Source: Octopus vulgaris | Taxonomy: Eukaryota | Direction of reading: 5' to 3' | Assembly: GCA_951406725.2 (NCBI GenBank) | Contig: OX597842.1 | Location: forward strand, 25,668,001-25,732,000 | DNA length: 64,000 nucleotides | Shown: piece after piece, positions 1 through 50,771 of the stretch | How the letters are laid out: each line of letters opens with the position of its first letter | How positions within the stretch are numbered: position 1 is the first letter of the stretch | Position numbers and translations under genes: made by a program | Notes under the pieces: generated by a model | Seen by the model: only the letters and a program-made list of their open reading frames with translations | Told to the model about the DNA's origin: nothing | The model's database searches: none

Positions 1-49
1 TAGAAATCTACTTTGCAGCCTCTATTTTCCTTTATCATGTGAGAATGTG

Positions 50-3000
50 CTCTATTGAAGAGGATCAGTGAAAGCGTGTCCCCCTGTCTAACACCTCGAC
101 GAATCTCTATGCGTTCACTAACTTGCCCACCGACTGAGAATCTGGTAGTACTACCTTCATAGATCCCCTCTACAAGCGCTATAACATGCTCGTGGAACCT
201 AAGTCTCCGCAGTGCCGCTTATACAAGAGAGTGCGAGACTGTATTGAAGGCCTTCGAGAGATCCAAAAAGGCAACCTCCAGCCGCGGTATTCTCAGTCGT
301 GCTGGCCTCCCCATAGCGCGACTAACGAGCTGCTGAAGGAGAAATGAATTCTCACTGCAGCCGTCAGCGCGGATAAAGCCTCTTTGGCTTGGATTAAGAG
401 GAGTTACCTGAAGCATGCGTTTGGCGACCATTTTAGAGATTAAACGATACACCGCAGAACATATCGTAATTGGTCGCCAGTTCGCAAGATCGTATGGGTC
501 GTCTGATCTCTTGGGTATGAGAATCGACTTACCCCGCTTCAGGATCTCGGGTACTTTACCCGCCAGCAACATGCAGTTGCATATATTTGCTAGGACAGCT
601 GGGTCCATTGCTTTGATTTCACCTATAGTGATGCTATCTGGACCCACCGCTGAGGAGATCTTCATTTGTTTTCTACTCACCTTAATCTCCTCCACGGAGA
701 ACGGACTCAAGATGGAGTCGTTCTCAACCTGGGAGGAGGAGGGGTAGTTCTTCAGATCTACCTTAGGGCCTTGAGCGGAAAGCCTGCCCTTATAAAATTT
801 CTCTATTGAATAGATTGGAATAGGGCATTCCTGCTCCCTGTTTTCACCTAACACAACTGCAAGGAGCTTCTTCCTATTTTTTCTAAATAGATCCTGATGT
901 CGGGCATAAGCTTGACGCTTATCCCGACGCCTAGGCCTAATGTTACTCTTGTTCGGTGTGTTCCTATCACTAACTAAATTTCTCCTGTTGTTGGTAACTA
1001 CCCTGCGCGATTTATAATGCTCCACCCAGTCCTCTATAGTTTTCTCAAACGAGCCCCAAGCAATCGCTGTCCCGTCTTCCATGAGTTCCAAAAGGGCCTC
1101 GGAGAAGACTGCAGACCAGTGGGTATGCCCGGGGCATGCAGAATCGAGGAAGGGATCCCTCCAGTCAGAACTAGACTGGGGTTCTCCCCAGATCAGCCCT
1201 TTTCGATCCCACCTGTTTGGCTGTTTTGCCCGGTAGGAACCGTGCAATGGCTGCATTTATCTGCTTTACCCCCGTCTTCTTCAGCTCTGACTCCTTTTCA
1301 ACGAGGACCGCTACTTCCTCGTCGGACCAACAGCCCTTGCATCTTTGGCCTATTGCCTCAGCAGCGGCTGCCCGATTGGCACGTTTCTTTGCAATTTGCT
1401 CTAAGCGAGCAGCAATCCTGCGGGCATTCGCCACTACAGGATGCTTATGCCGAACGTGCTGCGATCGACTTATAGCCGTCAAAAAAGAACGGCTACAGTG
1501 GTCACAATCAAAGGAGGCTAGAGCTGGACTAGGGGCAGGTGCTCTAAATGCACTGCCATCACATCTACCAGCGTGACCCCTCAAAGAATGGAGGTGACCG
1601 CTTTCCCTATCACATTTGATGCATCTGTAAACAGGTCTAATACCATTTCTACAGATAACATGCTCCCCCCATGAATGGGGGGAGGAGAAGCGCAGAGGAC
1701 ATAGCGGGCAGGCTATGGAGCATGACGCGCAGGGAATTGTAAGTGAGAATTCTCTACCACCTGGAGTGGGGCTTGATACCCCCACTACCTCCTCTCGATC
1801 CATTTCTAAATTAAGAGAATGAATGGGGAGGTCCCTAGCATCACCCTCTCTGTCCGTCTCTAACGAAAACCGGACTTCATCGATGGGGTCATGTGCTAGG
1901 TCCAGTGGGAGTTGTTCTCCTCTCACTATCAGGGAATGTTCTTTGTATTCTAGTCTAAATATGTTTACTCTATTTCTATAATACTTCAGTGTCGGACGCA
2001 AAGTTAAGCGCCCGACACTGGTCCTGTCGATGCCTATTGAGCCACTTGGACTTACTTGCACCGGAGATGACTCGTTGTCCCATGCAAGGGAGGGTAGTCC
2101 TTCGGCCGACCGCATTTGGTTAATGCCGTCAGCCTGACGTGTGGGCCCCATCCCGGACCCACAGGCCACCAGTTTAACGGCGCCTGGCTGCCGTGTGTTT
2201 CTGAACTTATTAGTTAGCATCACTATTCTTAGCGGCATTTTACTAGGGATCCTAACTGAAACGATAAAGTTGAACTTAAAGGAGGTGCAATGCCAACCCC
2301 CAAAAGAAAGGCAAACTTAACCACTAACCTAACCTCAAAGTCCTAACGGCCACCCACCTGAGTCTGGAGACAAACAGCAAGCAGCCCACCCTCCCGAGAA
2401 CTATTTCCCCCCAGAAAATACCTGGGGGACTTGTCTAGGCTAAACAGGACCGTGAGTGTATCCACCCCAGACCTGGAGCGGTGAACAAGAACGAGCCACC
2501 CTATGATAAGTCCTACGATAGATCCTATTACGGAAACCTCAACCGGCGAGTGAGGCGATAAAACATACTCAAGGCAAATATAGAAGATACGGCTACATTC
2601 CACCCGTCACAACAACCGGCTACACCATTAATATCAATCGGGCGCCCATCCCTATGGTAACCGCCCCCATTATGGAGGCAAGAGAAAGGGCCTTCACTCT
2701 ACACTGTTACAAGACAACTGCCCGACTGTAATAGCTGGACAGTCCCCCATCTACAGCCCGTGAAGGGCTCTATTCCTTAACACCGCAGCTGGGTACCTAA
2801 CTCACAGGCCCCTCCACACCAGCACAGGAATAACCGGCGATCCACACCGATGAACCAACCGGAAACCCCGGCCACTATACGCCTAAGACTACATTTCATT
2901 GGCTCTAAAATAAAGCCACGACCTTTTCTTTCTTGTCCCCGAAGGGAGAACCGCCCACTATCCGACTCACACCAACAGTAGCGCTAACCGGGTCACTAAA

Positions 3001-12027: not shown

Positions 12028-13306
12028 CACTTTGCCATTGTGGTGTTGTTTGAACTTCTTGTAGTCGTCTCTGAAACATCGGTTTCCCCTATTGGAAAAC
12101 AATTCTTAGCATTTGCTTCCTTGATGGAACCAGTCCTGCTGCCCCTTTTGGATTTTGGAGAATGCATGGATATTCCATTGATCAATTTCTTGTCCCTTTG
12201 TTTCATCAGGCCATGTTTATATATATAGAAAGGAAATTTGGACCTAGAAATCAACTTTTCTGCTTCTGTTTTCCTTCATTATGTGAGAATGTGCTACCCA
12301 TCATAACTGTGATCAGATAATGTGGGCCTTCGTGCTAACTATGCCAATGTGGTGTTGTTTGAACTTCTTGTAGTCGTCTCTGAAACGTTGGTTTCCCCTA
12401 TTGGAAAACAATTTTTAGCATTTGCTTCCTTGATGGAACCAGTCCTGCTGCCCCTTTTGGATTTCGGAGAATGCATGGATATTCCATTGATCAATTTGTT
12501 GTCCCTTTGTTTCATCAGGCCATGTTTATATATATAGAAAGGAAATTTGGACCTAGAAATCAACTTTTCTGCTTCTGTTTTCCTTCATTATGTGAGAATG
12601 TGCTACCCATCATAACTGTGATCAGATAATGTGGGCCTTTGTGCTAACTTTGCCATTGTGGTGTTGTTTGAACTTCTTGTAGTCGTCTCTGAAACGTCAG
12701 TTTCCCCAATTGGAAAACAATTTTTAGCATTTGCTTCCTTGATGGAACCAGTCCCGCTGCCTCTTTTGCATTTTGGAGAATGCATGGATATTCCATTGAT
12801 CAATTTGTTGTCCCTTTGTTTGATCGGGCCATGTTTTTATATATAGAAAGGAAATTTGGACCAAGAAATCAACTTATCTGCTTCTGTTTTCCTTCATTAT
12901 GTGAGAATGTGCTACCCATCATAACTGTGATCAGATAATGTGGGCCTTTGTTCTAACTTTGCCAATGTGGTGTTGTTTGAACTTCTTGTAGTCGTCTCTG
13001 AAACGTCGGTTTCCCCTATTGGAAAACAATTTTTAGCATTTGCTTCCTTGATGGAACCAGTCCCGCTGCCTCTTTTGCATTTTGGAGAATGCATGGATAT
13101 TCCATTGATCAATTTGTTGTCCCTTTGTTTCATAGGGCCATGTTTATATATATAGAAAGGAAATTTGGACGTAGAAATCAACTTTTCTGCTTCTATTTTC
13201 CTTCATTATATGAGAATGTGCTACCCATCATAACTGAGATCAGATAATGTGGGCCTTTCTGCTAACTTTGCCATTGTGGTGTTGTTTGAACTTCTTGTAG
13301 TTGTAT
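12028..13306. repeat. 309-bp tandem repeat, ~4 copies
   Basis: Equivalent positions at 12254, 12563 and 13181 are spaced by multiples of 309. Confidence 0.93.
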
Positions 13307-13580
13307 CTTCTTGTGTTCAGGAAACGTGGGCCTTTCTGCTAACTTTCCCAAAGTGTCTCAGGTGGTGTAGTTTGAATATCTGTTTTGGTTTCTGGAACAT
13401 CTGATTCCGTAATTACAAAATGGTTTATACCATTTCCTTGATGTCCTAGAAATCATGGAGTACCCAGCTTCCATTTGAAACATCTGATATGGATACGATC
13501 CATATAAATTTGACTAAAGTATTGACAACTTTTCAGTGGGTTCATTTTTCTGAATGCCATCAGGAACCATTTATATGGAA

Positions 13581-14823: not shown

Positions 14824-15022
14824 TCAGGAACCGTTTATATGGAATTTGCAGAGAATCTGAGCTTTGTCAGTCTCTATCGTTATATTTGTTCATTTCATTC
14901 TTTGCAATTTGGAGCTTTTGGTTGAGTTTTGGTTTGACTCCATTTCGTTTTGGTGGCTTCCATTACAGCCATTGCTGGTTTAATTGCCATTTTCAAAGAT
15001 GCTAATAAGGTAACGAGTGTTT

Positions 15023-16680
15023 GCACACTACCTGTGCCAATGGGGCTCAGGTGGTGTAGTTTGAAATTCTGTAGTGACTTCTGATTCATCAGAATCTAAT
15101 TTAGGGAACTATCTTTGGGAGACTACAGCCCTTTATTCTCTGGGTGTCCTGCCTTGCACAAGTTACAAGGGAATGAAGCCTGCACACTGACTGTGCCAAT
15201 GTGGCTCAGGTGGTGTAGTTTGAAATTCTGTAGTGACTTCTGATTCATCAGAATCTAATTTAGGGAACTATCTTTGGGAGACTACAGCCCTTTATTCTCT
15301 GGGTGTCCTGCCTTGCACAAGTTACAAGGGAATGAAGCCTGCACACTGACTGTGCCAATGTGGCTCAGGTGGTGTAGTTTGAAATTCTGTAGTGACTTCT
15401 GATTCATCATAATCTAATTTAGGGAACTATCTTTGAGAGACTACAGCCCTTTATTCTCTGGGTGTCCTGCCCTACACAACAGCTAAAAGGGAATGAAGCC
15501 CGCACACTGACTGTGCCAATGTGGCTCAGGTGGGGTAGTTTGAAATTCTGTAGTGACTTCTGATTCATCAGAATCTAATTTAGGGAACTATCTTTGGGAG
15601 ACTACAGCCCTTTATTCTCTGGGTGTCCTGCCCTACACAACAGCTAAAAGGGAATGAAGCCCGCACACTGACTGTGCCAATGTGGCTCAGGTGGGGTAGT
15701 TTGAAATTCTGTAGTGACTTCTGATTCATCAAAATCTAATTTAGGGAACTATCTTTGAGAGACTACAGCCCTTTATTCTCTGGGTGTCCTGCCCTACACA
15801 ACAGCTAAAAGGGAATGAAGCCCGCACACTGACTGTGCCAATGTGGCTCAGGTGGGGTAGTTTGAAATTCTGTAGTGACTTCTGATTCATCAGAATCTAA
15901 TTTAGGGAACTATCTTTGGGAGACTACAGCCCTTTATTCTCTGGGTGTCCTGCCCTGTCCTACACAACAGTTACAAGGGAATGAAGCCTGCACACTGACT
16001 GTGCCAATGTGCCTCAGGTGGGGTAGTTTGAAATTCTGTAGTGACTTCTGATTCATCAAAATCTAATTTAGGGAACTATCTTTGGGAGACCACAGCCCTT
16101 TATTCTCTGGGTGTCCTGCCCTACACAACAGGTACAAGGGAATGAAGCCTGCATTCTGACTGTGCCAATGGGGCTCAGGTGGTGTAGTTTGAAATTCTGT
16201 AGGTACTTCTGATTCATCAGAATCTAATTTAGGGAACTATCTTTGGGAGACTACAGCCCTTTATTCTCTGGGTGTACTTCCCTACACAACAGGTACAAGG
16301 GAATGAAGCCTGCACTCTGACTGTGCCAATGTGGCTCAGGTGGTGTAGTTTGAAATTCTGTAGTAACTTCTGATTCATCAAAATCTAATTTAGGGAACTA
16401 TCTTTGGGAGACTACAGCCCTTTATTCTCTGGGTGTCCTTCCCTACACAACAGGTACAAGGGAATGAAGCCTGCACTCTGACTGTGCCAATGTGGCTCAG
16501 GTGGTGTAGTTTGAAATTCTGTAGTAACTTCTGATTCATCAAAATCTAATTTAGGGAACTATCTTTGGGAGACTACAGCCCTTTATTCTCTGGGTGTCCT
16601 GCCCTACACAACAGTTACAAGGGAATGAAGCCTGCACACTGACTGTGCCAATGTGGCTCAGGTGGTGTAGTTTGAAATTC
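15023..16680. repeat. ~160-bp satellite, 10 full units plus a partial
   Basis: Unit starts at 15023, 15182, 15341, 15502, 15663, 15824, 15990, 16151, 16312, 16473 and 16634. Confidence 0.96.
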
Positions 16681-19243: not shown

Positions 19244-19300
19244 TTAAGAGAGTCATAGTTACTCCTGCCGTTTACCCACGCTTGGTTGAATTTCTTCACT

Positions 19301-19332
<32 letters not shown>

Positions 19333-19792: not shown

Positions 19793-21329
19793 GTAATTGT
19801 TTTGAATGTTGGTATTCACAAGAGAAATTCTTTGCCTGCGTGCTTCACCCATTTTCCAATCTCTCGTTTTATACTGTTGGAATTTTCATGCTGCTGTCTA
19901 AATATAAATACAAATTTGACTGTGCAGAACTACCTTTGTGTGTCTGCTGCCCTCCATTCTCAGATATGCCCTACTCAGTGCAAGAATAAGGTAGTGAGGG
20001 CCTGCATATTGTCTGTGCCAATGTGGTTCTTATTGTGTATTTAAATCTGTCATGAATTCTGATTTGTCAGATATTTCTTAAGCAACACAGCTTGTACAAT
20101 TCCTAATATTCTCTCCATCAATGGGTACCCTGCATCTAATCTAGATGGATTTAAACCAATAAAACATGGCACAGCTGGAGCAGATTGATGAATCAGAAGT
20201 TACTACAGAAGTTCAGATTGTACACTGGCACTACGGGTTGTACAATTCCTCCTCGTTTCAGTACATTTCCTCTTTTGGTATTGCAGGTTTTCTGTTCTGA
20301 ATTCTTCTATTGAGCATATCGGATCTTTACTAAGGGAGAGAGAAACAAGTGAAGCAGAAAGTTGGTTCTGTTCTGACGATTTTCATTAGAGCCATTGCAG
20401 TAGTCCATCATGTTTTTTGGATGGTGATTCAGATATTTGCTTTCTTGATGGAAACAGTCCAGTTGCTTCCTTTCAGTTTTGGAGAATACATGGGGTCTTC
20501 TTTGACCAATTTGTTGTCCCTTTGTTTCATATTGCAATTTGTATAAAAAAGGAAATTTGGACATAGAAATCTACTTTTCTGCTACTGTTTTCCTTCTTTA
20601 TATGAGAATGTGCTACCCATCATAACTGTGATCAGATAATGTGGGCCTTTGTGCTAACTTTGCCATTGTGGTGTTGTTTGAACTTCTTGTAGTTGTCTCC
20701 GTATCGTCTGATTCCCCTATTGTAAAACAATTTTTAGCATTTGCTTTCTTGATGGAAACAGTTCTGCTGCCTCTTATGGATTTTGGAGAATGCATGGATT
20801 TTCCATTGACCAATTTTTTGTCCCTTTGTTTCATCGGGCCATGTTTATATATATAGAAAGGAAATTTGGACCTAGAAATCAACTTTTCTGCTTCTGTTTT
20901 CCTTCATTATATGAGAATATGCTTCCCATCATATCAGTGATCAGATAATGTGGGCCTTTGTGCTAACTTTGCTTTTGTGGTGTTGTTTGAACTTCTTGTA
21001 GTTGTCTCCGTATCATCTGATTCCCTTTTTGCAAAATAATTTTTTTGCATTTGCTATCTTGATCGAAATAGTCCTGCTGCCTCTTTTGGATTTTGGAGAA
21101 TGCATGTTTCAGATACGTCTATTTCCAATATTGTAAAGCAGTTTTTAGCATTTGCTTTCATAATTGAAGCAGTCCTGCTGCCTTTTTTTACATTTTATAG
21201 AAAACTTGGATTTTCCATTGAGCAATTTGTTGTCCCTTTGTTTCATAGGGCCATGTGTATATAGAAAGGAATTTCTGGACATAGAAATCTGCTTTGCAGC
21301 CTCTATTTTCCTTTATCATGTGAGAATGT

Positions 21330-23603
21330 GCTATATTGAAGAGGATCAGTGAAAGCGTGTCCCCCTGTCTAACACCTCGACGAATCTCTATGCGTTCACT
21401 AACTTGCCCACCAACTGAGAATCTGGTAGTACTGCCTTCATAGATCCCCTCTACAAGCGCTATAACATGCTCGTGGAACCTAAGTCTCCGCAGTCCCGCT
21501 TACATAAGAGAGTGCGAGACTGTATCGAAGGCCTTCGAGAGATCCAAAAAGGCAACCTCCAGCCGCATTATTCTCAGCTGTGCTGGCCTCCCCATCGTGC
21601 GACTGATGAGCTGCTGAAGGAGAACCGAGTTGTCACTGCAGCCGTCAGCGCGGATAAAGCCTCTTTGGCTTGGATTAAGAGGAGTTACCTGAAGCATGCG
21701 CTTGGCAACCATTTTTGAAAATAAACGATAAACCGCAGAGCATATTGTAATTGGTCACCATTTTGCAAGATCGTATGGGTCGTCCGATCTCTTGGGTATG
21801 AGAATCGACTTCCCCCTCTTCAGGATCTCGGGTACTTTACCCGCCAGCAACATGCAGTTGCATATATTAGTTAGAACAGCTGGGTCCATCGCTTTAATTT
21901 CACCTATAGTGATACCGTCTGGACCCGCCGCTGAGGAGATCTTCATCTGACGTCTACTTACCTTAATCTCCCCCACGGAGAACGGACTCAACATGGAGTC
22001 GTTCTCAACCTGGGAGGAGGAGGGGTAGTTCTTCAGATCTACCTCAGGGCCTGGAGCGGAAAGCCTGCCCTTATAAAATTCCTCTATTGAATAGATTGGA
22101 ATAGGGCATTCCCGCTCCCTGTTTTCACCTAACACAACTGCAAGGAGCTTCTTCCTATTCTTTCTAAATAAATCTTGATGTCGGGCATAAGCTTGACGCT
22201 TATCCCGATGCCTAGGCTTAATGTTACTCTTGTTCGGTGTGTTCCTATCGCTAGCTAAATTTCTCCTGTTGTTGGTAACTACCCTACGCGATTTATAATG
22301 CTCCACCCAGTCCTCTATAGTTTTCTCAAATGAGCCCCAAGCAATCGCTGTCCCGTCTTCCACGAGTTCCAAAAGGGCCTCGGAGAGGACTGCAGACCAG
22401 CGGGTATGCCCGGGGCATGCAGAATCGAGGAAGGGGTACCTCCAGTCAAAACTAGACTGGGGTTCTCCCCCGATTTGTGATTGGGAGTTGGTCGTGGACT
22501 GTTCTGTCCCTTGATGACTCTTGCGAGCCCTTTTGGCCAGATCAGCCCTTTTCGATCCCACCTGTTTGGCTGTTTTGCCCGCTAGGAATTGTGCAATGGC
22601 AGCATTGATCTGCTTTACCCCTGTCTTCTTCAGCTCAGACTCCTTTTCAACGAGGACCGCTACTTCCTCTTCGGACCAACAGCCCCTGCGTCTTTGGCCA
22701 AAAGCCTCAGCAGCGGCTGGCCGATCGGCACATTTCTTTGTAATTTCTTCAAGGCGAGCAGCAATCCTGCGGGCATTCGCCTCAACAGGATGCTTATACT
22801 GCGATCGACCTACAGCCGTCAAAAAGAACGGCTGCAGTGGTCACAATCAAAGGAGGCTAGAGCCGGACTAGGGGCAGGTGCTCTAAATGCACTGCCATCA
22901 CATCTACCAGCGTGACACCTCAAAGAATGGAGGTGACCGCTTTCCCTATCACATTTGATGCATCTGTAGACAGGTCTAATACCATGTCTACAGATAACAT
23001 GCTACCCCCATGAATGGGGGGAGGAGAAGTGCAGAGGACATAGCGGGCAGGCTATGGAGCAAGACGCACAGGGAATTGCAAGTGAGAATTCTCTACCACC
23101 TGGAGTGGGGCTTGATACCCCCACTACCTCCTCTCGATCCATTTCTAAATTAAGAGAATGAATGGGGAGGTCCCTAGCATCACCCTCTCTGTCCGTCTCT
23201 AACGAAAACCGGACTTCATCGATGGGGTCATGTGCTAGGTCCAGTGGGAGTTGTTCTCCTCTCACTATCAGGGAATGTTCTTTGTATTCTAGTCTAAATA
23301 TGTTTACTCTATTTCTGTAATACTTCAGTGTCGGACGCAAAGTTAAGCGCCCGACACTGGTCCTGTCGATGCCTATTGAGCCACTTGGACTTACTTGCAC
23401 CGGAGATGACTCGTTGTCCCGTGCAAGGGAGGGTAGTCCTTCGGCCGACCGCATTTGGTTAATGCCGTCAGCCTGACGTGTGGGCCCCATACCGGACTCA
23501 CAGGCCACCAGTTTAACGGCACCTGGCTGCCGTATGTTTCTAAACTTATTAGTTAGCATCACTATTCCTAGCGGCATTTTACTAGGGATCCTAGCCGAAA
23601 CGA
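21330..23603 (-). mobile_element. R2 copy 5: 5'- and 3'-truncated
   Basis: ORFs 23002-23616, 21755-22822 and 21500-21712. Confidence 0.95.
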
Positions 23604-23638
<35 letters not shown>

Positions 23639-23660
23639 TGCTTGGTTGAATTTCTTCACT

Positions 23661-23692
<32 letters not shown>

Positions 23693-23792
23693 CGCGTCTG
23701 TGCAGCTTGGCCGGCTACGCGATGCTCTGTTTTAATTACTGTCGGATTCCCCTGGTCCGTACCAGTTCCGAGTTGACCGTTCACCGCCGGCC
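23604..23792 (-). rRNA. 28S rRNA fragment
   Basis: Near-identical to 19244-19432 at an offset of 4360. Confidence 0.95.
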
Positions 23793-24152
23793 TAACGCCT
23801 GCCTGTCTACGCTGTCAAATGCTTTTTCAAAGTCAACAAAGCACACACATAGTGATGTTTGCCATTCCATTGTCTGCTCCACGATGACTCTGAGTGTCAC
23901 AATCTTATCCGTGCATGATCTCTCCTTTCCGAGACCTGCCTGATCATCTCTGAGTGACTTGTCAATGGTATCTTTCAATTGCTCCAGGATGATTCTTGTA
24001 AGGACTTTGCTTGGAATGGAAAGCAAGGTAATTCCTCTCCATTTCCACTTTGTGATAAAATCCCTACTCTTCGGCAGCTTCACCGAAAGAACCTTCTTCC
24101 AGTCGTTTGGGATCTTCTCTGTCCTCCGTACCAAGTTCAGCACATGGAGCAT
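23793..24152 (-). mobile_element. RTE-like RT fragment
   Basis: ORF 23781-24212. Confidence 0.88.
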
Positions 24153-25689
24153 GTAATTGTTTTGAATGTTGGTATTCACAAGAGAAATTCTTTGCCTGCG
24201 TGCTTCACCCATTTTCCAATCTCTCGTTTTATACTGTTGGAATTTTCATGCTGCTGTCTAAATATAAATACAAATTTGACTGTGCAGAACTACCTTTGTG
24301 TGTCTGCTGCCCTCCATTCTCAGATATGCCCTACTCAGTGCAAGAATAAGGTAGTGAGGGCCTGCATATTGTCTGTGCCAATGTGGTTCTTATTGTGTAT
24401 TTAAATCTGTCATGAATTCTGATTTGTCAGATATTTCTTAAGCCATACAGCTTGTACAATTCCTAATATTCTCTCCATCAATGGGTACCCTGCATCTAAT
24501 CTAGATGGATTTAAACCAATAAAACATGGCACAGCTGGAGCAGATTGATGAATCAGAAGTTACTACAGAAGTTCAGATTGTACACTGGCACTACGGGTTG
24601 TACAATTCCTCCTCGTTTCAGTACATTTCCTCTTTTGGTATTGCAGGTTTTCTGTTCTGAATTCTTCTATTGAGCATATCGGATCTTTACTAAGAGAGAG
24701 AGAAACAAGTGAAGCAGAAAGTTGGTTCTGTTCTGACGTTTTTCATTAGAGCCATTGCAGTAGTCCATGCTGTTTTTTGGATGGTGATTCAGATATTTGC
24801 TTTCTTGATGGAAACAGTCCAGTTGCTTCCTTTCAGTTTTGGAGAATACATGGGGTCTTCTTTGACCAATTTGTTGTCCCTTTGTTTCATATTGCAATTT
24901 GTATAAAAAAGGAAATTTAGACATAGAAATCTACTTTTCTGCTACTGTTTTCCTTCTTTATATGAGAATGTGCTACCCATCATAACTGTGATCAGATAAT
25001 GTGGGCCTTTGTGCTAACTTTGCCATTGTGGTGTTGTTTGAACTTCTTGTAGTTGTCTCCGTATCGTCTGATTCCCCTATTGTAAAACAATTTTTAGCAT
25101 TTGCTTTCTTGATGGAAACAGTTCTGCTGCCTCTTATGGATTTTGAAGAATGCATGGATTTTCCATTGACCAATTTTTTGTCCCTTTGTTTCATCGGGCC
25201 ATGTTTATATATATAGAAAGGAAATTTGGACCTAGAAATCAACTTTTCTGCTTCTGTTTTCCTTCATTATATGAGAATATGCTTCCCATCATATCAGTGA
25301 TCAGATAATGTGGGCCTTTGTGCTAACTTTGCTTTTGTGGTGTTGTTTGAACTTCTTGTAGTTGTCTCCGTATCATCTGATTCCCTTTTTGCAAAATAAT
25401 TTTTTTGCATTTGCTATCTTGATCGAAATAGTCCTGCTGCCTCTTTTGGATTTTGGAGAATGCATGTTTCAGATACGTCTATTTCCACTATTGTAAAGCA
25501 GTTTTTAGCATTTGCTTTCATAATTGAAGCAGTCCTGCTGCCTTTTTTTACATTTTATAGAAAACTTGGATTTTCCATTGAGCAATTTGTTGTCCCTTTG
25601 TTTCATAGGGCCATGTGTATATAGAAAGGAATTTCTGGACATAGAAATCTGCTTTGCAGCCTCTATTTTCCTTTATCATGTGAGAATGT

Positions 25690-27966
25690 GATATATTGAA
25701 GAGGATCAGTGAAAGCGTGTCCCCCTGCCTAACACCTCGACGAATCTCTATGCGTTCACTAACTTGCCCACCAACTGAGAATCTGGTAGTACTGCCTTCA
25801 TAGATCCCCTCTACAAGTGCTATAACATGCTCGTGGAACCTAAGTCTCCGCAGTCCCGCTTACATAAGAGAGTGCGAGACTGTATCGAAGGCCTTCGCGA
25901 GATCCAAAAAGGCAACCTCCAGCCGCATTATTCTCAGCTGTGCTTGCCTCCCCATCGTGCGACTGATGAGCTGCTGAAGGAGAACCGAGTTGTCACTGCA
26001 GCCGTCAGCGCGGATAAAGCCTCTTTGGCTTGGATTAAGAGGAGTTACCTGAAGCATGCGCTTGGCGACCATCTTAGAAAATAAACGATAAACCGCAGAG
26101 CATATTGTAATTGGTCACCATTTTGCAAGATCGTATGGGTCGTCCGATCTCTTGGGTATGAGAATCGACTTCCCCCGCTTCAGGATCTCGGGTACTTTAC
26201 CCGCCAGCAACATGCAGTTGCATATATTAGTTAGAACAGCTGGGTCCATCGCTTTAATTTCACCTATAGTGATACCGTCTGGACCCGCCGCTGAGGAGAT
26301 CTTCATCTGACGTCTACTTACCTTAATCTCCCCCACGGAGAATGGACTCAAGATGGAGTCGTTCTCAACCTGGGAGGAGGAGGGGTAGTTCTTCAGATCT
26401 ACCTCAGGGCCTGGAGCGGAAAGCCTGCCCTTATAAAATTCCTCTATTGAATAGATTGGAATAGGGCATTCCCGCTCCCTGTTTTCACCTAACACAACTG
26501 CAAGGAGCTTCTTCCTATTCTTTCTAAATAAATCTTGATGTCGGGCATAAGCTTGACGCTTATCCCGATGCCTAGGCTTAATGTTACTCTTGTTCGGTGT
26601 GTTCCTATCGCTAGCTAAATTTCTCCTGTTGTTGGTAACTACCCTACGCGATTTATAATGCTCCACCCAGTCCTCTATAGTTTTCTCAAATGAGCCCCAA
26701 GCAATCGCTGTCCCGTCTTCCACGAGTTCCAAAAGGGCCTCGGAGAGGACTGCAGACCAGCGGGTATGCCCGGGGCATGCAGAATCGAGGAAGGGGTACC
26801 TCCAGTCAAAACTAGACTGGGGTTCTCCCCCGATTTGTGATTGGGAGTTGGTCGTGGACTGTTCTGTCCCTTGATGACTCTTGCGAGCCCTTTTGGCCAG
26901 ATCAGCCCTTTTCGATCCCACCTGTTTGGCTGTTTTGCCCGCTAGGAATTGTGCAATGGCAGCATTGATCTGCTTTACCCCTGTCTTCTTCAGCTCAGAC
27001 TCCTTTTCAACGAGGACCGCTACTTCCTCTTCGGACCAACAGCCCCTGCATCTTTGGCCAAAAGCCTCAGCAGCGGCTGGCCGATCGGCACATTTCTTTG
27101 TAATTTCTTCAAGGCGAGCAGCAATCCTGCGGGCATTCGCCTCAACAGGATGCTTATGCTGCGATCGACCTACAGCCGTCAAAAAAGAACGGCTGCAGTG
27201 GTCACAATCAAAGGAGGCTAGAGCCGGACTAGGGGCAGGTGCTCTAAATGCACTGCCATCACATCTACCAGCGTGACACCTCAAAGAATGGAGGTGACCG
27301 CTTTCCCTATCACATTTGATGCATCTGTAGACAGGTCTAATACCATGTCTACAGATAACATGCTACCCCCATGAATGGGGGGAGGAGAAGTGCAGAGGAC
27401 ATAGCGGGCAGGCTATGGAGCAAGACGCACAGGGAATTGCAAGTGAGAATTCTCTACCACCTGGAGTGGGGCTTGATACCCCCACTACCTCCTCTCGATC
27501 CATTTCTAAATTAAGAGAATGAATGGGGAGGTCCCTAGCATCACCCTCTCTGTCCGTCTCTAACGAAAACCGGACTTCATCGATGGGGTCATGTGCTAGG
27601 TCCAGTGGGAGTTGTTCTCCTCTCACTATCAGGGAATGTTCTTTGTATTCTAGTCTAAATATGTTTACTCTATTTCTGTAATACTTCAGTGTCGGACGCA
27701 AAGTTAAGCGCCCGACACTGGTCCTGTCGATGCCTATTGAGCCACTTGGACTTACTTGCACCGGAGATGACTCGTTGTCCCGTGCAAGGGAGGGTAGTCC
27801 TTCGGCCGACTGCATTTGGTTAATGCCGTCAGCCTGACGTGTGGGCCCCATCCCGGACTCACAGGCCACCAGTTTGGCGGCGCCTGGCTGCCGTATGTTT
27901 CTGAACTTAATAGTTAGCATCACTATTCCTAGCGGCATTTTACTAGGGATCCTAGCCGAAACGATA
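25690..27966 (-). mobile_element. R2 copy 6, near-identical to copy 5
   Basis: ORFs 27363-27938, 26115-27284 and 25860-26072. Confidence 0.95.
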
Positions 27967-28150
27967 AAGAGTCATAGTTACTCCCGCCGTTTACCCACGC
28001 TTGGTTGAATTTCTTCACTTTGACATTCAGAGCACAGGGCAGAAATCACATCGCGTCTGTGCGGCTTGGCCGGCTACGCGATGCTCTGTTTTAATTACTG
28101 TCGGATTCCCCCGGTCCGAACCAGTTCCGAATCGACCATTCACAGCAGGC
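27967..28150 (-). rRNA. 28S rRNA fragment
   Basis: Same variant as 4901-5086 (tccgaaccagttccgaatcgaccattcacagcaggc). Confidence 0.94.
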
Positions 28151-28511
28151 TGAACGCCTGCCTGTCTACGCTGTCAAATGCTTTTTCAAAGTCAACAAAG
28201 CACACACATAGTGGCCTTTGCCATTCCATTGTCTGCTCCACGATGACTCTGAGTGTCACAATCTTATCCGTGCATGATCTCTCCTTTCCGAGACCTGCCT
28301 GATCATCTCTGAGTGACTTGTCAATGGTATCTTTCAATTGCTCCAGGATGATTCTTGTAAGGACTTTGCTTGGAATGGAAAGCAAGGTAATTCCTCTCCA
28401 TTTTCACTTTGTGATAAAATCCCCACTCTTCGGCAGCTTCACCGAAAGAACCTTCTTCCAGTCGTTTGGGATCTTCTCTGTCCTCCGTACCAAGTTCAGC
28501 ACATGGAGCAT
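28151..28511 (-). mobile_element. RTE-like RT fragment
   Basis: ORF 28140-28385. Confidence 0.87.
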
Positions 28512-30179
28512 GTAATTCGTTTTGAATGTTGGTATTCACAAGAGAAATACTTTCCCTGCGTGCTTCAACCATTTTCCAATCTCTCTTGTTTTATACTGTT
28601 TTGTTTTGAAGTTTTTTCATTGCAACAATTGCTGCTTTCAAAGAGATTTCTTTGATACCAATTCTGACATTGGTATCTGGATTTTTGTTATCAATATTTT
28701 TGCACTCAAATTGTTTCTGAAGATCAGAAAGGATCTTATTTGACCAGTTCATCTCTTCATTTCATGCTGCTGTCTAAATATAAATACAAATTTGACTGTG
28801 CAGAACTACCTTTGTGTGTCTGCTGCCCTCCATTCTCACATATGTCCTACTCAGTGCAACAATAAGGTAGTGAGGGCCTGCATATTGTCTGTGCCAATGT
28901 GGTTCTCATTGTGTATTTAAATCTGTTGTGAATTCTGATTTGTCAGATATTTCTTAAGCAACACAGCTTGTACAATTCCCAATATTCTTTCCATCAATGG
29001 GTACCCTGCATCTAACCCAGATGGATTTAAACCAATAAAACATGGCACAGCTGGAGCAGATTGATGAATCAGAAGTTACTACAGAAGTTTAAATTTCACA
29101 TTTGCGACACCAGTTGTACAATTCCTCCTTGTTTCAGTACATTTCCTCTTTTGGTATTGCAGTTTTTCTGTTCTGAATTCTTCTATTGAGCATATCGGAT
29201 CTTTACTAAGAGAGAGAGAAACTTGTGAAGCAGAAAGTTGGTTCTGTTCTGACGATTTTCATTAGAGCCATTGCAGTAGTCCATCCTGTTTTTTGGATGG
29301 TGATTCAGATATTTGCTTTCTTGATGGAAACAGTCCAGTTGCTTCCTTTCAGTTTTGGAGAATACATGGGGTCTTCTTTGACCAATTTGTTGTCCCTTTG
29401 TTTCATATTGCAATTTGTATAAAGAAAGGAAATTTGGACATAGAAATCTACTTTTCTGCTTCTGTTGCCCTACATTATGTGAGAATGAGCTACTCAGCAC
29501 AACAGTGTTCATGTAATGAGGGCCTTTCTGCTAACTTTGTCATTGTGGTGTAGTTAGAATTTTTGTTGTGGTTTCAGATATATGGAATTCCACTTCTGCA
29601 AATAAATGTTTAGCATTTGCTTCCTTGATGGAACCAGTCCTGCTGCCCCTTTTGGATTTTGGAGAATGCATGGATATTCCATTGATCAATTTGTTGTCCC
29701 TTTGTTTCATCGGGCCATGTTTATATATATACAAAGGAAATTTGGACGTAGAAATCAACTTTTCTGCTTCTGTTTTCCTTCATTATGTGAGATTGTGCTA
29801 CCCATCATAACTGTGATCAGATAATGTGGGCCGTTGTGCTAAATTTGCCATTGTGGTGTTGTTTGAACTTCTTGTAGTCGTCTCTGAAATGTCGGTTTCC
29901 CCTATTGGAAAACAATTTTTAGCATTTGCTTCCTGGATGGAACCAGTCCTGCTTCCTCTTTTGGATTTTGGAGAATGCATGTTTCAGATACGTCTATTTC
30001 CACTATTGTAAAGCAGTTTTTAGCATTTGCTTTCATAATTGAAGCAGTCCTGCTGCCTTTTTTTACATTTTGTAGAATACATGGATTTTCCATTGAGCAA
30101 TTTTTTGTCACTTTGTTTCATAGGGCCATGTGTATATAGAAAGTTGCTGCCTCTATTTTCCTTTATCATGTGAGAATGT

Positions 30180-33100
30180 GCTATATTGAAGAGGATCAGT
30201 GAAAGCGTGTCCCCCTGTCTAACACCTCGACGTATCTCTATGGGTTCACTAAGTTGCCCACCGACTGTGAATCTGGTAGTACTGCCTTCATAGATCCCCT
30301 CTACAAGCGCTATAACGTGCTCATGGAACCCAAGTCTCTGCAGTCCAGCAAACCCCAACGAGTGCAAGACTGTATCGAAGGCCTTCGAGAGATCCAAGAA
30401 GGCAACCTCCAGCCACGGTATTCTCAGCCGTGCTGGCCTCCCCATAGCACGACTAACGAGCTGCTGAAGGAGAAATGAATTCTCACTGCAGCCGTCAGCG
30501 TGGATAAAGCCTCTCTGGCTTGGATTAAGAGGAGTTACCTGAAGCATGCGTTTGGCGACCATTTTAGAGAATAAACGATACACCGCAGAACATATCGTAA
30601 TTGGTCGCCAGTTCGCAAGATCGTAGGGGTCGTTTGATCTCTTTGATACGAGGACAGACCTAACTCGCTTCAGGATATCGGGTACTTTACCTGCCAGCAA
30701 CATGCAGTTGCATATATTTGCTAGGACAGCTGGGTCCATTGCTTTGATTTCACCTATAGTGATGCCATCTGGACCCTCCGCTGAAGAGATCTTCATTTGT
30801 TTTCTACTCACCTTAATCTCCTCCATGGAGAACGGACTCAAGATGGAGTCGTTCTCAACCTGGGAGGAGGAGGGGTAGTTCTTCAGATCTACCTTAGGGC
30901 CTGGAGCGGAAAGCCTGCCCTTATAAAATTCCTCTTTTGAATAGATTGGAATAGGGCATTCCTGCTCCCTGTTTTCACCTAACACAACTGCAAGGAGCAT
31001 CTTCCTATTTTTTCTAAATAGATCCTGATGACTGGCATAAGCTTGACGCTTATCCCGTCGCCTAAGTCTAGTGTTACTCTTATTTTGGTTATTCCTATCA
31101 CTAACTAAATTTCTCCTGTTGTTGGTAACTACCCTGCGCGATTTATAATGCTCCACCCAGTCCTCTATAGTTTTCTCAAATGAGCCCCAAGCAATCGCTG
31201 TCCCGTCTTCCATGAGTTCCAAAAGGGCCTCGGAGAAGACTGCAGACCAGTGGGTATGCCCGGGGCATGCAGAATCGAGGAAGGATCCCTCCAGTCAGAA
31301 CTAGACTGGGGTTCTCCCCAGATCAGCCCTTTTCGATCCCACCTGCTTGGCTGTTTTGCCTGGTAGGAACCGTGCAATGGCTGCATTTATCTGCTTTACC
31401 CCCGTCTTCTTCAGCTCTGACTCCTTTTCAACGAGGACCGCTACTTCCTCGTCGGACCAACAGCCCCTGCGTCTTTGGCCTATTGCCTCAGCAGCGGCTG
31501 CCCGATTGGCACTTTTCTTTGCAATTTGCTCTAAGCGAGCAGCAATCCTGCGGGCATTCGCCACTACAGGATGCTTATGCCGAACGTGCTGCGATCGACT
31601 TATAGCCATCAAAAAAGAATGGCTACAGTGGTCACAATCAAAGGAGGCTAGAGCTGGACTGGGGGCAGGTGCTCTAAATGCACTGCCATCACATCTACCA
31701 GCGTGACCCCTCAAAGAATGGAGGTGACCACTTTCCCTATCACATTTGATGCATCTGTAGACAGGTCTAATACCATGTCTACAGATAACATGCTACCCCC
31801 ATGAATGGGGGGAGGAGAAGTGCAGAGGACATAGCGGGCAGGCTATGGAGCATGACGCGCAGGGAATTGTAAGTGAGAATTCTCTACCACCTGGAGTGGG
31901 GCTTGATACCCCCACTACCTCCTCTCGATCCATTTCTAAATTAAGAGAATGAATGGGGAGGTCCCTAGCAACCCCATCTTTGTCTGTCTCTAACGAAAAC
32001 CGGACTTCATCGATGGGGTCATGTGCTAGGTCGAGTGGGAGTTGTTCTCCTCTCACTATCAGGGAATTTTCTTTGTATTCTAATCTAAATATGTTTGCTC
32101 TATTTCTGTAATACTTCAGTGTCGGACGCAAAGTTAAGCGCCCGACACTGGTCCTGTCGATGCCTATTGAGCCACTTGGACTTACTTGCACCGGAGATGA
32201 CTCGTTGTCCCGTGCAAGGGAGGGTAGTCCTTCGGCCGACCGCATTTGGTTAATGCCGTCAGCCTGACGTGTGGGCCCCATCCCGGACCCACAGGCCACC
32301 AGTTTAACGGCGCCTGGCTGCCGTGTGTTCCTAAACTTATTAGTTAGCATCACTATTCTTAGCGGCATTTTACTAGGGATCCTAACTGAAACGATAAAGT
32401 TGAACTTAAAGGAGGTGCAATGCCAACCCCCAAAAGAAAGGCAAACTTAACCACTAACCTAGCCTCAAAATCCTAACGGCCGCCCACCCGAGTACGGAGA
32501 CAGACAACAAGCAGCCCACCCACCCCCGAGAACTATTACCCCCAGAAAGCACCTGGGGGACTTGTCTAGGCTAACCGGGACCGTGAGTGTATCCACCCCA
32601 GACCTGGAGCGGTGAACAAGAACGAGACACCCTATGATAAGTCCTACGATAGATCCTATTACGGAAACCTCAACCGGCGAGTGAGGCGATAAAACACACT
32701 CAAGGCAAATATAGAAGATACGGCTAAATTCTACCCGTCACAACCACCGGCTAGACCATTAATATCAAAAGGGCGCCCATCCCTATGATAATCGCCCCAT
32801 AATGGAGGCAAGAGAAAGGTCCTTCACTCTACACTGTTACAAGACAACTGCCCGACTGTAATAGCTGGACAGTCCCCCATCTACAGCCCGTGAAGGGCTC
32901 TATTCCTTAACGCCGCAGCTGGGTACCTAACTCACAGGCCCCTCCACACCAGCTCAGGAAAAACCGGCGATCCACACCGATGAACCAACCGGAAACCCCG
33001 GCCACTATACGCCTAAGACTACAATTTATTGGCTCTAAAATAAAGCCATGACCTTTACTTTCTTGTCCCCGAAGGGAGAACCGCCCACTATCCGACTCAC

Positions 33101-33630
33101 ACAAACAGTAGCGCTCACCGGGTCACTAAAGACCAAAAGGATTCTAAGGGTTCAGCCAGCAGCCGCTCAACCTAACCAGTAGGGAGGCATGCACCCCCTA
33201 TCAGAATCGCCCAAAATCCACTAGCTCCCCACCAAAATAAATTGGAACCGCTTTGGAGAAAGAAGGACACGTTTAGTTTGTCCGATACGGGGTTTTTATC
33301 CGGCATTGTGTAAAGCATATCCAGCATCGACCCCGCATGGACGTAAGCTCTCTAACCACGCCAAGGTAGTGTCCAAAAGGGTGAAGCCTGGCAGTGCATC
33401 CACCTGGCAGTGCATCCACCTGCCGAGTAAAAAAACAGTGAGCAAAGCCCACTGAATCCTGACAGGTCATAACATACTAGGTCATAACATACTAGGTCAT
33501 AACATACTAGGTCATAACATACTAGGTCATAACATACCAGGTCATAACATACCAGGTCATAACATACCAGGCCTACCTGTTAATGCATCCACCTCAAAAG
33601 AGGTCATAAGAAACAGGCCCCACAAGAGCC
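30180..33630 (-). mobile_element. R2 copy 7: full 5' UTR, 3'-truncated, paralog of copy 3
   Basis: ORFs 31793-32368, 31301-31714 and 30020-31222. Confidence 0.95.
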
Positions 33631-33662
<32 letters not shown>

Positions 33663-33776
33663 GTTGAATTTCTTCACTTTGACATTCAGAGCACAGGGCT
33701 ACGCGATGCTCTGTTTTAATTACTGTCGGATTCCCCCGGTCTGTACCAGTTTCGAGTCGACTGTTCACCGCCGGCA
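33631..33776 (-). rRNA. 28S rRNA fragment with internal deletion
   Basis: Same deletion variant as 10626-10771. Confidence 0.92.
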
Positions 33777-34136
33777 TAACGCCTGCCTGTCTATGCTATC
33801 AAATGCTTTTTCAAAGTCAACAAAGCACACACATAGTGGCCTTTGCCATTCCATTGTCTGCTCCACGATGACTCTGAGTGTCACAATCTTGTCCGTGCAT
33901 GATCTCTCTTTTCCGAGACCTGCCTGATCATCTCTGAGTGACTTGTCAATGGTATCTTTCAATTGCTCCAGGATGATTCTTGTAAGGACTTTGCTTGGAA
34001 TGGAAAGCAAGGTAATTCCTCTCCATTTCCACTTTGTGATAAAATCCCTACTCTTCGGCAGCTTCACTGAAAGAACCTTCTTCCAGTCGTTTGGGATCTT
34101 CTCTGTCCTCCGTACCAAGTTCAGCACATGGAGCAT
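33777..34136 (-). mobile_element. RTE-like RT fragment
   Basis: ORF 33765-34196. Confidence 0.88.
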
Positions 34137-35435
34137 GTAATGGTTTTGAATGTTGGTATTCACAAGAGAAATTCTTTGCCTGCGTGCTTCACCCATTTTC
34201 CAATCTCTCTTGTTTTATACTGTTTTGTTTTGAAGTTTTTCATTGCAACAATTGCTGCTTTCAAAGAAATTTCTTTGATACCAATTCTGACATTGGTATC
34301 TGGATTTTTGTTATCAATATTTTTGCACTCAAATTGTTTCTGAAGATCAGAAAGGATCTTCTTTGACCAGTTCATCTCTTCATTTCATGCTGCTGTCTAA
34401 ATATAAATACAAATTTGACTGTGCAGAACTACCTTTGTGTGTCTGCTGCCCTCCATTCTCAGATATGTCCTACTCAGTGCAACAATAAGGTAGTGAGGGC
34501 CTGCATATTGTCTGTGCCAATGTGGTTCTCATTGTGTATTTAAATCTGTTGTGAATTCTGATTTGTCAGATATTTCTTAAGCAACACAGCTTGTACAAAT
34601 CCCAATATTCTCTCCATCAATGGGTACCCTGCGTCTAACCCAGATGGATTTAAACCAATAAAACATGGCACAGCTGGAGCAGATTGATGAATCAGAAGTT
34701 ACTACAGAAGTTTAAATTTCACTTTTGCAACACCAGTTGTACAATTCCTCCTCGTTTCAGTACATTTCCTCTTTTGGTATTGCAGTTTTTCTGTTCTGAA
34801 TTCTTCTATTGAGCATATCGAATCTTTACTAAGGGAGAGAAAAACATGTGAAGCAGAAAGTTGGTTCTGTTCTGACGATTTTCCTTAGAGCCATTGCAGT
34901 AGTCCATGCTGTTTTTTGGATGGTGATTCAGATATTTGATAGAACAGGTCCAGTTGCTTCCTTTCGTTTTGGAGAATACATGGGGTCTTCTTTGACCAAT
35001 TTGTTGTCCCTTTGTTTCATTGTGCAATCCGTGTATAGAAAGTAAATTTAGACATAGAAATCTACTTTTCTGCTTCTGTTGCCCTACATTATGTGAGAAT
35101 GTGCTACTCAGCACAACAGTGTTCAGGTAATGAGGGCCTTTCTGCTAACTTTGTCATTGTGGTGTAGTTAGAATTTTTGTTGTGGTTTCAGATATATGGA
35201 ATTCCACTTCTGGAAAAAAATGTTTAGCATTTGCTTCCTTGATAGAACCAGTCCTGCTGCCTGTTTTGGATTTTGGAGAAATCATGGATATTCCATTGAC
35301 CAATTTGTTGTCCCTTTGTTTCATCGGGCTATATTTACATTTATATGTCCAAATTTCCTTTCTATATATAGTTTGCAGCCTCTGTTTTCCTTCATTATAT
35401 GAGAATGTGCTACCCAACAATATCGTGATCAGATA

Positions 35436-37464
35436 ATGTGGGCCTTTGTGCTAACTTTGTCATTGTAGTCTGGTTAGAATTTCTGTTGTTTCTGGAACAT
35501 TTGATTCCCCTATTGCAAAACAGTTTTTACCATTTCCTTCATGTCGTAGAAATCAAGGAGTGTCCAGCATTAAAAATTCAAGGAATGAGATGCAGAAAAG
35601 CCACAGTCAGTCCATTGTATTTCATAGCATCCTCAGAAAATCCCTCCATTCTCAGATATGTCCTACTCGGTGCAAGAATAAGGTAGTGAGGGCCTGCATA
35701 TTGTCTGTGCCAATGTGGTTCTTATTGTGTATTTACATCTGTTGTGACTTCTGATTGGCCAGATATTACTTTAGCAACACAGATTGTACAACTCCCAATA
35801 TTCTGTGAATCAATGGGTACCCAGCATCGATGAGACGTACCCTAGATGGATTTAAACCAATAAAACATGGCACAGCTGGAGCAGATTGATGAATCAGAAG
35901 TTACTACAGAAGTTCAGATTGTACACTGGCACTACAGGTTGTACAATTCCTCCTTGTTTCAGTACATTTCCTCTTTTGGTATTGCAGTTTTTCTGTTCTG
36001 AATTCTTCTATTGAGTATATCGGATCTTTACTAAGAGAGAGAGAAACTTGTGAAGCAGAAAGTTGGTTCTGTTCTGATGATTTTCATTAGAGCCATTGCA
36101 GTAGTCCATCCTGTTTTTTGGATGGTGATTCAGATATTTGCTTTCTTGATGGAAACAGTCCAGTTGCTTCCTTTCAGTTTTGGAGAATACATGGGGTCTT
36201 CTTTGACCAATTTGTTGTCCCTTTGTTTCATATTGCAATTTGTATAAAGAAAGGAAATTTGGACATAGAAATCTACTTTTCTGCTTCTGTTGCCCAACAT
36301 TATGGGAGAATGTGCTACCCATCACAACAGTGTTCAGGTAATGTGGGCCTTTGTGCTGACTTTGTCATTGTAGTTTGGTTAGAATTTCTGTTGTTTCTGG
36401 TACATTTGATTCCACTATTGCAAAACAGTTTTTACCATTTCCTTCATGTCGTAGAAATCAAGGAGTGTCCAGCATTAAAAATTCAAGGAATGAGATGCAG
36501 AAAAGCCACAGTCAGTCCATTGTATTTCATAGCGTCCTCAGAAAATCCCTCCATTCTCAGATATGTCCTACTCGGTGCAAGAATAAGGTAGTGAGGGCCT
36601 GCACCTTGTCTGTGCCAATGTGGTTCTTATTGTGTATTTACATCTGTTGTGACTTCTGATTGGCCAGATATTACTTTAGCAACACAGATTGTACAACTCC
36701 TAATATTCTGTGAATCAATGGGTACCCAGCATCGATGAGACATACCCTAGATGGATATAAACCCATAAAACATGGCACAGCTGGAGCAGATTGATGAATC
36801 AGAAGTTACTACAGAAGTTTAAATTTCACTTTTGCGACACCAGTTGTACAATTCCTCCTCGTTTCAGTACATTTCCTCTTTTGGTATTGCAGTTTTGCTG
36901 TTCTGAATTCTTCTATTGAGCATATCGAATCTTTACTAAGAGAGGGAAAAACATGTGAAGCAGAAAGTTGGTTCTGTTCTGACGTTTTTCCTTAGAGCCA
37001 TTGCAGTAGTCCATGCTGTTTTGTGGATGGTGATTCAGATATTTGCTTTCTTGATGGAAACAGTCCAGTTGCTTCCTTTCAGTTTTGGAGAATACATGGG
37101 GTCTTCTTTGACCAATTTGTTGTCCCTTTGTTTCATATTGCAATTTGTATAAAGAAAGGAAATTTGGACATAGAAATCTACTTTTCTGCTTCCGTTGACC
37201 AACATTATGGGAGAATGTGCTACCCATCACAATAGTGTTAAGGTAATGTGGGCCTTTGTGCTGACTTTGTCATTGTAGTTTGGTTAGAATTTCTGTTTCT
37301 GGAACATTTGATTCCACTATTGCAAAACAGTTTTTACCATTTCCTTCATGTCGTAGAAATCAAGGAGTGTCCAGCATTAAAAATTCAAGGAATGAGATGC
37401 AGAAAAGCCACAGTCAGTCCATTGTATTTCATAGCATCCTCAGAAAATCCCTCCATTCTCAGAT
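35436..37464. repeat. ~905-bp tandem duplication of spacer sequence (~2.2 copies, no R2)
   Basis: Equivalent ORF ends at 36008 and 36913. The gtagaaatcaaggagtgtccagc block occurs at ~35546, 36451 and 37353. Confidence 0.85.

Positions 37465-50260: not shown

Positions 50261-50296
<36 letters not shown>

Positions 50297-50422: not shown

Positions 50423-50456
<34 letters not shown>

Positions 50457-50740: not shown

Positions 50741-50771
<31 letters not shown>

Follow-up and report, generated by a model that had tools for sequence, protein, structure and literature searches.

A 64,000-nt stretch of Octopus vulgaris DNA (GenBank assembly GCA_951406725.2, contig OX597842.1, positions 25,668,001–25,732,000 of the forward strand; hereafter the window) carries, across 1–37.4 kb, a minus-strand tandem array of cassettes in which fragments of an RTE-type retroelement, of the 28S ribosomal RNA gene and of the retrotransposon R2 are fused to one another within satellite DNA. 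Our favored, though by no means firm, explanation is that the truncated cassette formed once, was multiplied by unequal exchange and was patched with sequence from other, once-active R2 copies. The array is likely to be a fossil record of R2 rather than a working archive.

Layout and probable single origin of the array

Self-comparison and mapping of the modules bore out the tandem arrangement proposed in a first-pass annotation of this DNA, with the array continuing past the window on its left side. Along the minus strand, a unit consists of an AT-rich spacer repeat, a 357-nt fragment of an RTE-type reverse transcriptase (RT), a 28S piece, R2 and a 309-bp satellite. From low to high coordinates, the units follow in the order B1, A1, B2, A2, A3, A4, B3; a 1.1–1.3 kb segment lies between 28S and the R2 open reading frame (ORF) in the B units (3/7 copies), and 28S joins the ORF almost directly in the other 4/7. 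The seven R2 bodies, starting on the minus strand at 32394, 27964, 23603, 19243, 9353, 4898 and 2264, each stand behind a 28S piece ending within a few nucleotides of the R2 site (7/7), as had been claimed, and the lengths of these pieces (56–200 nt) are close to the 55–190 bp first given. Also as described before, six pieces start at one and the same RTE-28S junction (33787, 28162, 23803, 19443, 10782 and 5098; pieces of 164, 196, 198, 198, 164 and 198 nt, respectively). The seventh (3444–3389, 56 nt) is the remnant of a deletion with 4-nt microhomology, by which A1 became fused to B1. The parts of the array are:

53–2264 (−): R2 body B1, 3′-truncated in RT motif B′
2265–3389 (−): native R2 5′ untranslated region (UTR) of B1; ribozyme pattern, P2 5′ strand at 3245, P2 3′ strand at 3141
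3389–3444 (−): 56-nt 28S piece; deletion joining R2 A1 to 28S of B1
3445–4898 (−): R2 body A1, no 5′ UTR, shortened by the A1–B1 deletion
4899–5098 (−): 28S piece of A1
5091–5447 (−): RTE-type RT fragment of A1, last 8 nt common with 28S
5694–7142 (−): AT-rich spacer repeat (5694–6245) plus roughly three 309-bp satellite units; junction with R2 B2 at TAGC, 7142
7143–9353 (−): R2 body B2, 3′ breakpoint as in other copies
9354–10618 (−): native 5′ UTR of B2, ribozyme pattern at 10332, expanded 15-bp repeat
10619–10782 (−): 28S piece of B2, 34-nt deletion
10775–11131 (−): RTE-type fragment of B2
11378–13308 (−): spacer repeat and four 309-bp units with free GG|TAGC site (12296, 12605, 12914)
15022–16680 (no strand assigned): 161-bp satellite, 10 copies, related to the spacer repeat
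16688–16980 (−): 309-bp satellite flank of R2 A2
16981–19243 (−): R2 body A2, most divergent (87–88%), junctions as in others, small inversion near 18441
19244–19443 (−): 28S piece of A2
19436–19792 (−): RTE-type fragment of A2
19884–21333 (−): spacer repeat and 309-bp satellite
21334–23603 (−): R2 body A3
23604–23803 (−): 28S piece of A3
23796–24152 (−): RTE-type fragment of A3
24244–25693 (−): spacer repeat and 309-bp satellite
25694–27964 (−): R2 body A4, 99% identical to A3, three in-frame stops
27965–28162 (−): 28S piece of A4
28155–28511 (−): RTE-type fragment of A4
28760–30183 (−): spacer repeat and 309-bp satellite
30184–32394 (−): R2 body B3
32395–33623 (−): native 5′ UTR of B3, ribozyme pattern at 33374
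33624–33787 (−): 28S piece of B3, 34-nt deletion
33780–34136 (−): RTE-type fragment of B3
34383–37375 (−): right end of the array, cassette-free spacer and 309-bp satellite with two 905-bp units

One lesion, a substitution plus a 2-nt loss not seen in octopus 28S, is common to all six RTE-joined 28S pieces. All six copies that have a 3′ end break off at one base in RT motif B′, upstream of YADD, and are followed there by the satellite. The five measurable 3′ flanks are 87–99.5% alike, with common derived states, and 83–88% alike to free satellite units. Because the 28S lesion, the 3′ breakpoint and the 3′ flanks are common, we suggest that the units have a single origin. A single capture of a 28S/R2 junction followed by large tandem-repeat amplification, as initially proposed, is thereby supported, and repeated independent origin of the 3′ junction was rejected, as the flanks form one lineage. 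Across units, the RTE-type fragments are 97.2–99.7% alike and the R2 bodies 87–99% identical, with the A3/A4 bodies and the B2/B3 5′ UTRs exceeding 99% identity.

The RTE-type fragment encodes 119 residues. Most of its top matches (61–75% identical) are RT proteins, and many of its relatives are single ORFs of about 1000 residues with endonuclease and DUF6451 domains; we provisionally assign it to the RTE clade, a name that no database match carried. Eight bases at its junction with 28S are present in octopus 28S and compatible with the RTE codons R-Q-A, suggesting that the join used 8-nt microhomology. As a first step, a 28S/R2 piece with its native 5′ UTR would thus have joined a decayed RTE fragment through this microhomology and the 309-bp satellite through TAGC. 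Out-of-register recombination would then have copied the unit, with small microhomology deletions giving rise to variants (5′ UTR loss, the 68-nt and 34-nt deletions, the A1–B1 fusion). Finally, interior tracts may have been swapped with R2 copies of independent insertion, by gene conversion or double crossover, while the junctions were retained.

The window contains no further ribosomal DNA (rDNA), in agreement with the first-pass annotation. Rfam returned three matches at gathering threshold in the 64 kb, all to large-subunit (LSU) rRNA and all at cassettes. An Rfam E-value scan of 1–48000 found neither small-subunit nor 5.8S rRNA, only more LSU pieces and weak unrelated matches, and the downstream 28S target sequence TAGCCAAATGCC is on neither strand of the window. 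The 18S, 5.8S and full 28S genes that make up an rDNA unit are thus absent from the 64 kb. The label "ectopic" given to the array therefore holds inside the window; beyond it, the label does not carry, as the left end of the array is open. To the right, the array gives way to ordinary repeat-rich DNA with a mariner-type transposase fragment.

A truncated R2 family of lineage A

The R2 part, judged from motifs read in translations, comprises three zinc fingers (ZF3, ZF2 and ZF1), a Myb domain and the first portion of the RT. Its best matches among solved structures are 9nl3 and 9dou (R2Tg; E 6e-35 and 1e-34, respectively). In an RT tree of 38 rows, the six RT-bearing copies cluster with three fragments (support 100/99), near mollusc and annelid proteins, and group with R2-type proteins of molluscs, annelids, birds and fish (support 93/90, unstarred), which points to membership of R2 lineage A. 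Among database proteins, CAI9736398.1 and CAI9736399.1 come closest; these adjacent O. vulgaris gene models lie on one 84-Mb contig and contain at least five R2 5′ fragments that are 73–94% identical to, yet distinct from, the window copies. These models are stitched from several R2 5′ fragments, two of which end in one shifted frame; because of this common end, there must be either another amplified R2 cluster or one more portion of such an array.

R2s are known from three Octopus species and from Eledone (PMC13188248, Table S2). The octopod elements R2-1_OVu, R2-1_OSi, R2-1_ORu and R2-1_ECi share the layout of three fingers and Myb with the window R2, and have a similar ORF start where it is visible (PMC13188248). 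Compared by eye over ZF3–ZF2, only 42–44 of 66 residues match between R2-1_OVu and the window R2 (PMC13188248, Table S2), and we therefore suggest that the array represents another family. The 5′ UTR of the window R2 is also about 800 nt longer than in the octopod R2s of PMC13188248. Three protein searches yielded no full-length R2 more than 46% identical over most of the query, the closer matches being fragments only. The 28S flanks of R2-1_ECi from Eledone are visibly mutated, and this element is perhaps another decayed octopod R2-28S unit (by eye, PMC13188248).

All seven R2 copies are incomplete, and none amounts to a whole R2. Matches to a 1300-residue R2 end at residues 797–821, neither YADD nor an endonuclease motif occurs in any frame of 1–38000, and the R2 3′ UTR and downstream 28S junction of an intact element are missing from all array copies. 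ORFs starting at the conserved Met end after 137–349 codons (n = 7), six of them before the second zinc finger. Only the B1 ORF (349 codons, 2220–1171) reaches Myb, and while it includes ZF2 and ZF1, it has lost the last His of ZF3 and is ended by a 68-nt deletion. In A2, an inversion at about 18441–18406, lying between short inverted words, destroys ZF1. In this state, the array cannot supply a working R2. Of the earlier suggestion of an R2 "archive", the idea of a store of usable R2 is accordingly not supported, as YADD, endonuclease and 3′ UTR are missing, while a narrower sense survives, in that the copies preserve the sequence of several once-active sublineages.

The 1.1-kb segment of the B units was considered as a foreign insertion, a view that we rejected in favor of a native 5′ UTR after comparison with published mollusc R2 5′ ends. 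No coding signal came out of it in six-frame translation, in codon-position counts or in tblastn with all fetched proteins (best tblastn E 0.03, the window's own overlapping ORF aside). In a fold scan of 17 segments, the first 150 nt of the UTR gave a z-score of −4.1 in sense versus −2.1 in antisense direction against shuffled sequences; two further sense segments scored below −2.6, and one inside the ORF scored −6.0. A pattern resembling the hepatitis delta virus (HDV) ribozyme, with P1, P2, P3, a 7-nt L3, P4 and a CUAA J4/2, is present in all three UTR-bearing copies, and its P1′ strand is complementary to the 28S bases just upstream of the target. By eye, the P3-L3-P3′-P1′ core also begins R2-1_OVu, R2-1_ORu, R2-1_ECi and the scallop R2-1_MVa, with the first P3 pair changed yet paired (PMC13188248). 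Rfam and two purpose-made HDV descriptors gave no ribozyme match in the UTR; the descriptors missed the pattern because its loop departs from the usual sequence. Based on this pattern, we assign a putative HDV-like ribozyme to the 5′ end of the B units; in B1, its cut would be predicted 11–13 nt upstream of the R2 site. R2 ribozymes are known to cleave 9–36 nt upstream in 28S, and long J1/2 extensions occur (PMC3774820).

Among the units lacking the UTR, the 28S/ORF junction of A1 is as predicted by a deletion between two CTT words, and a 5′-truncated insertion would look identical. Within the UTR, a 15-bp unit is expanded to 7–8 copies in B2 (10421–10544) and B3 (33464–33571), and the stretch from 28S to the ribozyme core loosely resembles, by eye, duplicated 28S target sequence.

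A selection footprint in dead, mosaic copies

Across the RT half, the ratio of nonsynonymous to synonymous divergence (dN/dS) is 0.13–0.41 in all 15 pairs among six copies (p at most 0.004, the pairs not being independent; A1, with 34 codons, was excluded). Such values are a paradox, because neutral divergence is expected among dead copies that descend from a single founder. In 8/8 pairs there are more synonymous changes than under a neutral model matched for bases and CpG, R2 variant alleles fall 45/34/100 on the three codon positions, and RT divergence at 4-fold sites is greater than 3′-flank divergence in 4/6 pairs (e.g. 26/125 versus 7/191). That the low ratios stem from CpG decay and transition bias alone was rejected for the four most divergent pairs, not for all nine.

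The copies are also mosaic (PHI-like test, p = 0.0002). Stops and frameshifts are common to incompatible sets of copies, and one 150-column segment of B1 matches A3/A4 exactly, whereas B2/B3/A1 are the nearest copies in others. Differences are clustered in 21/21 R2 pairs, 0/14 RTE pairs and 12/15 spacer pairs. The largest cluster of differences in A2 was examined as a conversion tract and rejected, being the inversion. The A1 linker has residues in common with the O. vulgaris fragments that are missing from most window copies. Import from R2 copies that had diverged while active fits the footprint best; these donors may be dead today themselves. Selection on a protein made by the array fits poorly, because the synonymous excess lies downstream of the shared breaks.

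Several observations weigh against this explanation. No donor was seen at the DNA level, and no full-length member of the window's R2 family emerged from the three protein searches, a negative that is only weak evidence that there is none. As a neutral control, the RTE fragments offer few alleles (17, distributed 5/5/7 over the codon positions). The excess of 4-fold over zero-fold changes persists in only 6/9 pairs without CpG-prone sites and in 4/9 on transversions alone. The clustering of R2 differences may partly reflect a variable linker, with 6 of the 21 pairs driven by the A2 inversion. Moreover, the window cannot show how far true rDNA lies. As several R2 donors are needed, it becomes more probable that the array has, or once had, rDNA in its neighborhood.

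These copies illustrate that dead, truncated elements can show a strong signal of purifying selection, a trap when low dN/dS is read as domestication. The array preserves an octopod R2 family unlike the published ones, of which the searches gave no full-length ORF, together with a record of several sublineages of that family.

The 3′ junction, rival explanations and known systems

Free satellite units read GG|TAGC at the position of the 3′ breakpoint, which equals the R2 nick-site hexamer and is the only such hexamer in the unit examined; the TAGC on the R2 side comes from conserved Ile-Ala codons. We incline slightly to microhomology-mediated DNA repair as the source of this join, and give a little short of an even chance to off-target nicking by R2 at GG|TAGC with internal priming, i.e. 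target-primed reverse transcription (TPRT). Only about 0.3% of possible 4-nt microhomology joins would fall at GG|TAGC. Internal priming is known for L1. Avian R2 off-target insertions show little target likeness beyond the primer-complementary bases after the nick (PMC11371274), which fits. Against an off-target origin, the GG|TAGC match was spotted post hoc, and in PMC11371274 internal fusions are classed as non-TPRT events and a template 3′ end, absent here, is required. The satellite as a full R2 target was rejected, since the sequence upstream of GG|TAGC is, by eye, unlike the upstream 28S target. If the junction is a TPRT product, it represents a natural, internally primed off-target insertion by an R2 of lineage A, the lineage used for rDNA-targeted gene insertion.

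The array could instead be a decayed edge or relic of rDNA, whose units carried R2 of several sublineages, with the 309- and 161-bp repeats as spacer subrepeats and two deletion junctions, each formed once, spread to neighboring units by concerted evolution. Several once-active sublineages are most easily met inside rDNA, where dead R2 is reported to have been amplified and to have exchanged tracts with functional R2 by conversion (PMC4370867); butterfly spacer satellites have monomers of 157–408 bp (PMC10257491), and the open left end leaves room for adjoining rDNA. However, 18S, 5.8S and downstream 28S were not found in the 64 kb, the satellite has 39% GC while octopus 28S flanks appear very GC-rich (by eye, PMC13188248, Table S2), and spacer-repeat fragments run into ordinary interspersed-repeat DNA at 38–41 kb. 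We regard such a relic as rather unlikely. An artefact of assembly, in which separate R2 fragments were stitched in tandem, might be suspected from the more than 99% identity of the A3/A4 bodies and the B2/B3 UTRs. Yet the copies differ by 1–13%, with nested shared indels and chimeric patterns, and collapse is disfavored because RT-half identities and diagnostic indels vary from copy to copy. By sampled-word matching, in which word shares do not show junctions, 17/24 listed sequencing runs contain part of a 9.2-kb stretch of the window; 14 of the listed runs, with four organism labels and from seven studies, one of which may be the source, carry 0.20–0.56 of its words. DNA runs of the six studies besides that of the best holder carry 0.20–0.41, leaving the junctions unproven, and we consider an artefact highly improbable. 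None of the listed runs containing the stretch is an RNA run.

A selected host control device, in which a zinc-finger/Myb protein or an RNA blocks R2 or the 28S half-sites soak up R2 protein, would account for the dN/dS values well under 1, for the B1 unit retaining a ribozyme-pattern UTR and a 349-codon ORF that ends just past Myb, and for the upstream half of the target site in all seven units. It is difficult to reconcile with 6/7 ORFs ending before the second zinc finger and B1 being without a ZF3 ligand, with the strongest synonymous excess lying in the RT half behind shared stops and frameshifts, where no protein is possible, and with the lack of an rDNA promoter region in the window. 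We thus deem it improbable. Little credence is also given to a self-updating decoy, i.e. an array born off-target and in contact with live R2, whose 28S half-sites draw R2 protein, with the resulting breaks driving expansion and allele import, and with B1 or array-derived small RNAs restraining R2 in rDNA. Should the array be transcribed or bound by R2, host limitation of R2 would be testable at one locus.

Insects are already known to have chimeric R-element arrays outside rDNA, as well as conversion among dead R2 copies; an array of this type in a cephalopod was not found in the literature searched, mostly openly accessible papers. The first-pass statement that R2 is normally confined to 28S genes in rDNA stands as a rule with published exceptions: extra-rDNA R2 copies are known from five flies, with an R1/R2 fusion array outside rDNA in Drosophila simulans (PMC2718515), and bird R2 remnants are flanked by fragmented 28S or non-rRNA DNA (PMC5035012). 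Like the array described here, that of D. simulans is a tandem, extra-rDNA repeat of a chimeric, dead R-element unit (PMC2718515). In contrast to the fly case, the octopus array retains the R2 5′ half along with some 200 nt of upstream 28S, joined to an RTE-type fragment and satellite. Its copies bear a selection footprint and diverge by as much as 13%, compared to 1–2% for the fly extra-rDNA R2 copies (PMC2718515).

The R1 satellite in D. melanogaster X heterochromatin is likewise a retroelement-derived tandem with short 28S pieces, not directly in the rDNA array, and also has internal deletions and inserted elements (PMC5932611). It stems from a double insertion with a 33-nt target duplication (PMC5932611); the octopus array lacks a duplication, its element is truncated, and satellite and RTE-type DNA separate the units. 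R2Br-deg resembles our array as a dead R2 multiplied by unequal recombination, with internal tracts exchanged between dead and functional variants; unlike here, it is full length and resides in 28S genes, and its conversion ran from degenerate to functional-type copies (PMC4370867).

R2 SIDEs keep the 3′ end that is needed for mobilization, whereas all six 3′ ends of the array stop in the RT. In these non-autonomous, deleted R2 derivatives the 5′ ribozyme is kept (PMC3414825), as is the pattern in the B units.

The 28S pieces of A2 and A3 (19244–19443 versus 23604–23803) differ at 8/18 CpG sites and at none of 164 other sites. R2 A3/A4, which likely derive from the same recent duplication, differ at 4/89 CpG sites (p = 5e-5). 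This confinement suggests that either the 28S scrap was specifically targeted by methylation or a tract was converted. The pattern was not seen in the B2/B3 28S comparison (0/13 CpG sites changed). In octopus, methylation is low in transposons and higher in satellites (PMC9476566). CpG observed/expected of the spacer and satellite repeats is low (0.04–0.31).

The spacer repeat and the 309-bp and 161-bp satellites share short similar stretches (5694–6245, 12029–13308, 15022–16680, 38153–41371) and look like one old repeat family. Nested, duplicated interspersed-repeat blocks at 37.6–42.7 kb break up spacer-repeat fragments, with 37.6–38.5 kb resembling 40.4–41.3 kb by eye. Farther right, very long degenerate TA/TATG microsatellite tracts occupy 49907–52558 and 61597–63380, and the broken mariner-type transposase fragment lies at 60626–61250 on the plus strand (PF01359, E 3.5e-19).

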